Shown piece by piece: positions 5,873 through 64,000 of a stretch of 64,000 nucleotides of DNA (position 1 is its first letter; each line of letters opens with the position of its first letter). Position numbers and translations under genes: made by a program. The notes under the pieces were generated by a model that made no database searches, was not told the DNA's origin, and saw only the letters and a list, made by a program, of their open reading frames with translations. The DNA is from Desulfatiglandales bacterium. Lineage in GTDB: Bacteria; Desulfobacterota; DSM-4660; Desulfatiglandales; Desulfatiglandaceae. The stretch spans positions 1,280,001 to 1,344,000 of the forward strand of contig OY762721.1 of the NCBI GenBank assembly GCA_963666345.1, read 5' to 3'.

Positions 5873-5997
5873 GACGGCACAGTAAAAAGTTCCAAATGCA
5901 AGGCCTGCGAGCCTTGAGGAATGAGGCGTACTTTAAGTACGTCGCAATGACGAAAGACGAAGCATAACGCAGCAGTCGGTCTTTTTACGAAGCCGTC
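5873..5997. repeat. MITE-like element, family A (125 bp), with an orphan right end at 5827-5849
   Basis: Ends GACGGCACAGTAAAAAG and CTTTTTACGAAGCCGTC are imperfect inverted repeats; closely similar copy at 45004-45194. Confidence 0.8.
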
Positions 5998-45003: not shown

Positions 45004-45194
45004 GACGGCACAGTAGAAAGTTCAAATGCAAGGCTTGCGCTTCCGGGAACCCGCCCCGAGCCTGTTGAGGGGTGGGACTGAGCAAGGCCCTTAGGGCCTT
45101 GCAAAGAATCTTGAGGAATGAGGCGTACTTATAGTACGTCGCAATGACGAAAGATGAAGCATAACGCAGCAGTTGGACTTTTTACGAAGCCGTC
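45004..45194. repeat. MITE-like element, family A, carrying a ~67-bp family-B insert (45040-45106)
   Basis: Aligns with 5873-5997 on both sides of the insert; extra degenerate end motif at 44977. Confidence 0.8.
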
Positions 45195-62988: not shown

Positions 62989-63427
62989 CCATGACAACCT
63001 ATTGATTACACATGATAATCATTCCAAAAATAGCGGTTTACGAGGCCTATATCGCCGTTTTTAGCCCCAAAATTGACGATATAGGGAGTTACCGGCTCCC
63101 GAAGCTCATATCCATTTCCGGATTGTCTTACTTTTCTGCCAATTGCGGCTCCAAGCAAAAGCGATTTTAAATTTTCAACAAAGGTCTTGCTTCCTACACC
63201 TATGCTATCGGTCCATTTTTCATCTCTCTTAGTTTCTGTGCTTCCAATTGACTCCTCTATCCACTCCTTGTAGTGATTCCTCATTGCTTCATAAGAGTTT
63301 ATTCCAAGCAAGGCCCTCAACTTATCGTATTTTATCAACACATTTTTCTTTTTCGGCTTCTGTATTTCATTGTAACCGCAAAAAGGCCACATTGAAGGGT
63401 GCGTCACTACACCAGCTCTTACCATAT

Positions 63428-63682
63428 TTACCCTGTTAAATAAGATTTTAGCCTTCTTTTTATAAACATTTTACCATGGTGTGTTTTGAGATATTTCTCT
63501 CTTCTGGTTGCGTCCTCTTGGTTAAGGCACGCTTCATAATAAATGAGTCTAAGAGGTCTTCGATCTCGCGTTGAATCTACCAATCCCTTACCGTGCTGTT
63601 CAAATCTTAGTTTGAGATCTTTTATAAATCCAGTGTAGAATTTATCATCATATTCACTTTGCAAAACGTAAACGTAGTACAT
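63428..63682 (-). CDS. Stand-alone GIY-YIG nuclease
   Basis: YYVYVL...FYTG...DL..R...H..G, A..RE..LK. Confidence 0.9.
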   Translation of the reverse strand: MYYVYVLQSEYDDKFYTGFIKDLKLRFEQHGKGLVDSTRDRRPLRLIYYEACLNQEDATRREKYLKTHHGKMFIKRRLKSYLTG

Positions 63683-63709
63683 ATTATTCTCAAACTATTT
63701 AACAGGGTG
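63429..63709. mobile_element. 281-bp inverted-repeat-bounded insertion encoding only a GIY-YIG nuclease
   Basis: TACCCTGTTAAATA (63429-63442) and TATTTAACAGGGTG (63696-63709); excision restores the host frame. Confidence 0.85.
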
Positions 63710-64000
63710 AATATCAACATAGACCAGACACCTTAAAAGATGCTCTCCTTCCTCAATGGCAGTAGCATGATAGCGGTCTTCCCAGAAGGCACCCTTTCTA
63801 TTTTTCCTTTGATTGTATTCCTGTCCTGTTCTGCCGGCTATCAATTTGATGGATTTCGGGATAACATCCCTTTCTCCATCATCTGATGCTATCAGGTGTA
63901 TATGGTTTGATGTTACAGCGTAATTAAGGATAGTTAACCCGTAACGTTTTCTTGCCTGGTATAGCCAGTAAAGCCAGCGACGTCGGTCTCTGGCAAACTT

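Follow-up and report, generated by a model that had tools for sequence, protein, structure and literature searches.

Single-domain GIY-YIG nucleases that act on single-stranded DNA are known from Neisseria meningitidis, where the 94-aa protein SsnA binds to NTS hairpins and has ssDNA as its only cleavage substrate (Chenal et al. 2025, Nat Commun; PMC11893778). Homologues of SsnA usually are accompanied by flanking hairpin motifs, and the authors likened the NTS-ssnA-NTS layout to an insertion sequence, bringing in IS200/IS605 and REP/RAYT for comparison. In Neisseria, SsnA modulates transformation, and mobility is presented as a hypothesis only (PMC11893778). Among published systems, these Ssn ssDNA nucleases with their hairpin repeats are the closest to the locus that we describe here. 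Hairpin-forming DNA ends, the lack of a target duplication, gene-less derivatives and a probable action on single strands are familiar from the IS200/IS605 and REP/RAYT elements. Y1 transposases act on DNA hairpins, and the smallest insertion sequences measure about 700 bp.

The element studied here lies on the minus strand at positions 63429-63712 of the window (the whole 64,000-nt stretch of DNA that was analysed), where 284 nt are present that are absent from an empty allele; in its full form it is single-copy in this genome. It is flanked by the two halves of one RAYT-like Y1 transposase (Y1_Tnp) gene. The N-terminal part (63713..64000, minus strand; Pfam PF01797, E 3.2e-8) runs past the edge of the window and has 130 aa when taken in full (L001:1796-2188), and the C-terminal part (63006..63428, minus strand) starts with NMVRAGVV and has 139-140 aa. 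An intact 266-aa paralogue in the same genome (3692874-3693671) reads VYIDMNMVRAG across the break (VYIDMNMVRAGVV), and its top NCBIfam match is the REP-associated tyrosine transposase at 75.2 bits, which is below the cut-off of 80. Eleven intact Y1 homologue loci, identified by a motif search of 61 genomes, all carry D-[LM]-N-M-[VI]-R-A-G at this site. The element has landed in a RAYT-like Y1 gene between D-L and N-M-V-R-A-G, in the same orientation as the gene, and inactivates it. Further short fragments of this RAYT-like Y1 gene family are scattered over the genome (G000:C1, at 1163191-1163283, 2732202-2732312, 3110107-3110292, 3114937-3115047 and 3783699-3783880).

Perfect 13-bp inverted-repeat arms (ACCCTGTTAAATA / TATTTAACAGGGT) bound the segment. 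The preliminary description had recognised them but placed them one base off; they occupy 63430-63442 and 63696-63708, and the 13-bp sequence has no other exact match inside the window. A repeat finder extends the pairing to 19 nt at 95% complementarity (63424-63442 with 63696-63714), and it reports a second inverted pair of 10 nt inside the element (63608-63617 with 63688-63697). These pairings belong to three helices, all of them given here on the minus strand. The upstream arm of helix 1 (63696..63714; gene-sense ATATTCACCCTGTTAAATA) contains the 13-bp repeat 63696-63708 as well as stop codons that terminate the interrupted Y1 host frame (..HPVK, then stop), while the downstream arm (63424..63442; gene-sense TATTTAACAGGGTAAATAT) codes for Y-L-T-G and gives the nuclease its TAA stop. 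The 5' side of helix 2 (63688..63696; AGTTTGAGA) adjoins the upstream arm and includes the GAG just 5' of the start codon, and its 3' side (63609..63617; TCTCAAACT) lies within the (N-)L-K-L codons. For helix 3, the 5' side is formed by the R-F-E codons (63600..63608; AAGATTTGA) and the 3' side by the (L-)K-S codons abutting the downstream arm (63442..63450; TAAAATCTT). The stem that encloses the gene has about 17 bp, which are made up of the 13 bp and 4-5 outer bp including a conserved wobble. A scan of 63300-63850 against Rfam by E-value returned 0 matches, and this, along with the termination of the host frame inside the upstream arm, agrees with the earlier assessment that we are dealing neither with an intron nor with an intein.

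The sole ORF of the element (63428..63682, minus strand) encodes a single-domain protein of 84 aa. It had been read as a GIY-YIG protein whose end, Y-L-T-G, is the inverted repeat itself, and this is confirmed both by the position of its last codons within the arm and by a match to Pfam PF01541 (E 1.3e-12, 48.3 bits against a cut-off of 22.6, residues 1-71). Matches to PDB sequences are those of the UPF0213 proteins 1zg2_A (E 5e-6) and 1ywl_A, and the Pfam and PDB matches together were judged enough to assign the GIY-YIG fold. A comparison with NCBIfam gave no match, and the 84 aa contain no separate DNA-binding domain. There are 37 positions with a conservation of at least 95% among 76 relatives, and this copy retains every one of them, including Y3/Y5, Y16-x-G18, R26, H30, E50 and E62. 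We presume, by analogy, that the conserved residues have the catalytic roles of the GIY/YIG tyrosines, the arginine and the metal-binding glutamate. The assignment also draws on the SsnA mutants Y6A, Y17A and E64A (PMC11893778). Judging from substitution counts, the nuclease is under purifying selection (median pN 0.175 and pS 0.848 in 55 pairings of this copy with a sequence of equal length). The genome's two other GIY-YIG genes, at 32-35% identity, are without such repeats.

Evidence on the history of the insertion comes from public sequencing runs containing the stretch, four of which were compared over 63050-64000. An empty transposase allele, the existence of which the preliminary description had anticipated, is found among them. 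Two marine-sediment metagenome runs from different studies, X4 and X5, yield empty-allele contigs (765 nt at a depth of 14.2 and 1798 nt at a depth of 17.6, respectively) that join 63428 to 63713 with CAA between them (plus strand; TTG in gene sense), and their flanks display 0 other differences over 63050-63428 and 63713-64000 (379 + 288 bases). In a third run, X3, which is labelled as an organism, both alleles are present: a filled contig at depth 2 spans 63399-63742 with one difference, and the empty joint is seen at depth 3, its shorter side being just 30 letters. Since filled and empty contigs with identical flanks exist, the element is polymorphic among near-identical strains, and from this polymorphism we conclude that it probably moves. 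Among the public runs listed for the stretch there is no RNA dataset.

On the gene strand, the empty site is GTT GAT TTG AAT ATG GTA, encoding V-D-L-N-M-V, and the same Leu codon stands at this site in two intact Y1 homologues. The filled sequence, GTTGAT-ATTCA-[CCCTG...CAGGG]-TA-AATATGG, thus corresponds to GTTGAT-TTG-AATATGG in the empty allele, and because the empty site reads GAT TTG AAT, the 284 nt stand in place of 3 nt. It had been proposed that deletion of 63429-63709 restores the transposase frame; this is correct as arithmetic, but the real empty allele reads V-D-L-N-M-V and exchanges 284 nt for 3 nt. The palindromic target ATATT^AATAT that had been suggested along with it has to be given up, as these letters actually are the outer 5 bp of the element's own imperfect stem (ATTCA opposite TAAAT). 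The lack of a target-site duplication, on the other hand, is borne out by the comparison of the alleles: at this copy there is neither a duplication nor a direct repeat (GAT-TTG-AAT when empty, GAT-ATTCA..TA-AAT when filled). The junction is irregular in that TTG is replaced by ATTCA..TA, and the target TGAAT is the exact complement of the terminal ATTCA of the element.

Several simple models of insertion were tried on this junction and rejected. A clean 281-nt insertion into TT^AA misses it by 1-3 bases when set against the empty allele, and an insertion of CA..TA into TT^AA needs 1-3 extra changes. Inserting the core plus TAAA 3' of TTCA (on either strand), inserting TTYA plus the core 5' of TGAA, or assuming a 4-5-bp target duplication likewise ends 1-3 bases off the observed junction.

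With respect to the direction of the change, the TTG codon argues that the empty sequence represents the uninterrupted ancestral state. In a further run, X7, short contigs cross both filled junctions, with 19 differences in 356 in the left flank, so that X7 appears to contain a relative diverged by 2-5% and filled at the same site, if its contigs belong together. Given this filled relative, the empty allele could also have arisen by loss, for example if the site recombined with an empty copy. X7 additionally contains a contig that joins 63451 to 63689 and skips 237 nt, with a shorter side of 26 letters; it may perhaps stem from an internally deleted, gene-less derivative in a close relative.

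The element has many relatives. Using the protein as query, matches at E<=1e-8 were found in 17 of 61 related genomes in a patchy distribution, with up to 9 nuclease matches in one of these genomes and with some copies decayed and containing stops. In searches on a wider scale, species genomes yielded 325 relatives and metagenomes 479, and the best 80 of each were kept (69-82% protein identity). Among the best 80 of the 325 relatives from species genomes, the hosts are mostly Patescibacteria; other hosts are Desulfobacteraceae, Gammaproteobacteria, Bdellovibrionales, Aminicenantes, Bacteroidales, Izemoplasmatales, Udaeobacter and one Bathyarchaeia MAG. No relatives were found on plasmids or phages at E<=1e-10, nor on viral contigs. 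One 1.1-Mb Parcubacteria genome (G063, reached via L141) has ten nuclease matches, some of them in tandem gene arrays.

The ends of the element and the gene remain coupled. Both arms were found in 90 of 92 elements that were checked (the 80 loci from species genomes and 12 more from the search among relatives, not counting L023, which runs into the end of its contig, nor L024, L025 and L041, which are distant), and also in 79 of the 80 metagenome loci. The same ends are common to 169 relatives, the similarity between copies ceases 4-5 nt beyond CCCTG..CAGGG, and the size of the family element is about 277-291 bp. Distant relatives have different arms which still match each other. The homologues thus retain the repeats while occupying different loci, and the picture first drawn from this single locus, that of a discrete insertion, extends to a family in many unrelated contexts and phyla, with ends that co-vary. 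Empty sites for other copies were sought by a DNA search of 31 relatives of a CPR genome, which matched the element but never the flanks.

The pairing of the ends was evaluated in an alignment of 82 elements, in which helix 1 consists of the two ends, helix 2 of the stretch after the upstream arm and the N-L-K-L codons, and helix 3 of the R-F-E and L-K-S codons. Over the three helices, 92.5% of the cells are paired, as compared to 27-53% when the partners are slid against each other, and changes on both sides occur in 18 of the 36 pairs. There are 146 compensatory cells versus 41.5 in shuffles; of 500 shuffles, 0 came up to 146. The two inner helices contribute to this, with 93.8% of cells paired and 6 of 10 pairs changed on both sides in helix 2, and 96.8% of cells paired and 4 of 9 pairs changed on both sides in helix 3. 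In computed structures, the window's own copy adopts the three-helix fold on both strands. The family alignment supports a three-helix junction that is conserved and shows compensatory changes. Mismatches in the helices are 25 G·T and 27 A·C, hence equally rare, which we take as a hint, short of proof, at a structure of DNA, in which both strands matter, rather than of RNA. A bias for G·T on the sense strand, which we had considered at one point, was dropped upon this proper count, since the apparent bias arose from including the junction position and the -1 pair of the four-helix-bundle class.

The foot of the stem shows a peculiar regularity. Outer letters of the form TTYA/TRAA are present in 102 of the 169 elements, and in these the ±2 pair, the second from the foot, is C·A in 55, T·G in 41, T-A in 5 and C-G in 1, that is, a wobble in 96 of 102. 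Because a C·A becomes a T·G when the opposite strand is read, both strands of every such element carry a wobble. On a protein tree, which is a quick and weakly supported one, members of the two wobble classes are intermingled; a sister pair with 98% support differs in wobble class, and two identical proteins have different outer letters. This interspersion means that the state is often reset, or else is under selection. Elements in four-helix-bundle genes have their wobble, a G·T, one position further in. Only folding of each strand back on itself would explain such a pattern.

Short non-coding derivatives with the same stem foot, which the preliminary description suggested looking for, exist in the form of four gene-less 48-nt mini copies elsewhere in the genome, outside the window (G000:C1:2068806-2068853; 2414029-2414076 on the opposite strand; about 2530568-2530615; about 2277395-2277442). 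Their stem foot (CCCTGTTCAAT/ATTGAACAGGG, which on one strand is preceded by TTCA) and a pair of small internal hairpins together form a miniature three-helix junction. All four are nested at one point of a repeat of about 75 nt, of which at least 12 copies are without them, and because they share one junction they count as a single insertion event. The repeat (..GTCCAACTGCTGCGTTATGCTTCATCTTTCGTCATTGCG..) has an internal palindrome, occurs within the window at 5917-5991 and 45114-45188 (minus strand) and in at least 10 more places in the genome, and is possibly REP-like.

We consider it probable, on balance, that the locus is one copy of a widespread, self-contained mobile family that consists of a GIY-YIG gene within a long-range stem and that would operate in analogy to Ssn. 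The mechanism is inferred from this analogy, and the activity of the protein as well as the movement are predictions. Single strands would arise at replication forks or during DNA uptake, and the nuclease would recognise the folded single-stranded form and cut at the foot of helix 1, with the wobble two pairs from the foot marking, or limiting, cleavage. A hydrolytic nuclease cannot rejoin DNA alone, so that host factors must be assumed; host replication and repair would finish the move, and the outcome would be the replacement of a few target bases with no target duplication. A more far-reaching version has it that the family represents an autonomous transposon of less than 300 bp which has nothing but its 84-aa nuclease, moves as a folded three-way ssDNA junction, uses the wobble as a strand or cleavage mark and homes to short motifs in selfish or multi-copy genes. 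To this version we can give tentative credence, somewhat short of an even chance.

The choice of targets raises the question whether the element is instead a free-standing homing endonuclease gene, which would cut empty copies of conserved sites in multi-copy gene families and spread by recombinational repair with a filled copy as template. Host genes were classed by matching host C-terminal halves to the downstream flanks of 169 elements. By this procedure, 29 elements sit in four-helix-bundle genes (PF05635; cut at N-I-A-E-G, with the Pfam profile split at 45/48), 8 in GxxExxY genes (TIGR04256, E 1.3e-28; cut between V and Y of the motif G-F-L-E-x-V-Y-E; the loci include L189, L211, L205, L188 and L097) and 2 in Y1 genes; the remaining 130 lie elsewhere, in many cases immediately 5' of a start codon. 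The distant element L041, with its different arms, is also located in the GxxExxY gene family. In each of the 39 in-gene copies that were classified, element and host gene have the same orientation, and a dedicated search of 164 upstream flanks for the opposite orientation found none. That the same codon position is filled again and again in diverged homologues of the three families, which are small and multi-copy, that conserved motifs serve as targets, as they commonly do in homing, and that the orientation is constant all would fit a homing gene.

The two Y1 copies are informative in this respect. One is the copy described here and the other, L035, belongs to another genus and occupies the same Y1 site. 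The elements are 84.5% identical (234/277; pS 0.45), whereas their Y1 flanks are 68% (97/143) and 51% (196/385) identical, with pS of 0.87 and 0.81. As the element is closer than the host flanks, the same site was reached separately in diverged genes, or there was a later exchange. The Y1 element is younger than its two host genes, which again speaks for homing, but these low identities extend right to the junction, and co-conversion between the two copies was not seen beyond about 5 nt. Neither does homing account for the 130 of 169 copies that are outside the three gene families and often just 5' of start codons, nor is an 84-aa protein without an extra DNA-binding domain what one would expect. 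A homing gene furthermore has no need of conserved, co-varying terminal helices and would leave no gene-less mini copies behind. We therefore regard homing as an unlikely explanation, if one with several facts on its side.

Some further observations concern individual sites. The GIY-YIG gene of L035 (G034:C291) is broken by a 177-bp insertion with 20-bp TIRs and a 5-bp duplication, CTAAG, and in view of these TIRs and the direct duplication the insert is a classical MITE nested in the element. Outside genes, the stop codon of the element often overlaps the start codon of the host gene (TAAATG or TAAATATG), which suggests either translational coupling or targeting of start codons. L119 and L163 both lie 5' of a gene starting with MPELPEV.

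Slightly less probable still than homing is the possibility that the locus is a non-autonomous hairpin element of the MITE or REPIN kind, moved in trans by, e.g., a Y1/RAYT enzyme, with the GIY-YIG gene as cargo or as an addiction or defence function. The gene-less mini copies with the same stem foot speak for this, RAYT-like genes are available in the host genome, and Y1 transposases are described to act on DNA hairpins (PMC11893778). Against this stands that arms and nuclease gene remain linked, and co-vary, over many phyla, and it is this tight coupling of the ends to the gene which weakens the reading as a MITE with cargo. In addition, helices 2 and 3 are built of the gene's own codons, and the copy described here destroys a Y1 gene. 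Least probable by far is a resident Ssn-like host system, i.e., an ssDNA restriction function or transformation modulator in which the repeat is a regulatory or mRNA structure of a fixed gene, since, even though SsnA does modulate transformation in Neisseria (PMC11893778) and helix 2 covers the GAG just 5' of the start codon, such a system is largely refuted by the present/absent polymorphism with identical flanks and is opposed also by the location of the gene inside a broken transposase gene, by loci that differ in every genome, by the lack of a cognate repeat array (there being one full and four mini copies here), by mismatches without a G·U bias and by the lack of an Rfam match.

If the reading as an autonomous transposon were true, the family would represent a further class of prokaryotic transposition, beside the DDE, DEDD, HUH, serine and tyrosine enzymes. 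To our knowledge, GIY-YIG chemistry is not used by the known insertion sequences, and, if that reading holds, we know of no smaller self-contained mobile element. Should the nuclease drive the movement, we would have a mobile element that does not reach half the length of the smallest insertion sequences. The pair of filled and empty alleles with letter-identical flanks, both of which are found in one run, is a type of evidence that the 2025 Ssn paper lacked. The family may also provide tools in the form of natural, compact ssDNA nucleases that are specific for sequence and structure and come in many specificities. Lastly, parasites are nested in parasites here, with the element in a transposase gene, a MITE in a sister copy and mini copies in a repeat.

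How does the element compare with the known systems? The preliminary description had considered an unrecognised class. The discrete and polymorphic insertion is supported, but the class is not wholly unrecognised, in that Ssn nucleases with flanking hairpin repeats were published in 2025. Like these, the element has a single-domain GIY-YIG protein (about 85-95 aa) and hairpin-forming repeats around its own gene. Its outer stem, ATTC..CCC / GGG..GAAT, loosely recalls by eye the dRS3 core ATTCCC-N8-GGGAAT (PMC11893778). The element does not fit the published degenerate SRM pattern, which has 0 matches in 63001-64000 of the window and 22 in the 4.16-Mb genome. The element differs from Ssn in that one long-range stem encloses the gene, whereas Ssn genes have local 20-50-nt hairpins on each side; in that the three-helix junction makes use of coding sequence, with one arm within the last codons; and in that mobility is backed by a filled/empty pair, while the paper only hypothesised mobility and showed a host function.

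The hairpin ends, the missing target duplication, the small size, the gene-less derivatives and the probable action on single strands are all shared with IS200/IS605 and REP/RAYT. However, the Y1 HUH transposase of IS200/IS605 cuts and rejoins DNA via a covalent intermediate, whereas the element encodes just a predicted hydrolytic GIY-YIG nuclease, does not reach half the size of such elements and, at this locus, has put a RAYT-like Y1 gene out of action. Without a Y1 enzyme, it is not a member of IS200/IS605, the Y1 gene at this locus being its interrupted host. With the free-standing GIY-YIG homing genes (T4 Seg, I-TevI family) it has in common a selfish nuclease gene and the re-occupation of conserved sites, yet it is not a typical homing endonuclease gene, as it is without a DNA-binding domain, has conserved terminal helices and mini copies, occupies mostly non-homologous sites and displays no co-conversion. 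Terminal inverted repeats and short gene-less derivatives, finally, are features of MITEs and TIR transposons as well, but the repeats of the element pair with each other as a stem, in which changes are compensatory and a wobble is conserved, and the lack of a duplication at this copy and of a DDE gene sets it apart from a classical TIR transposon.
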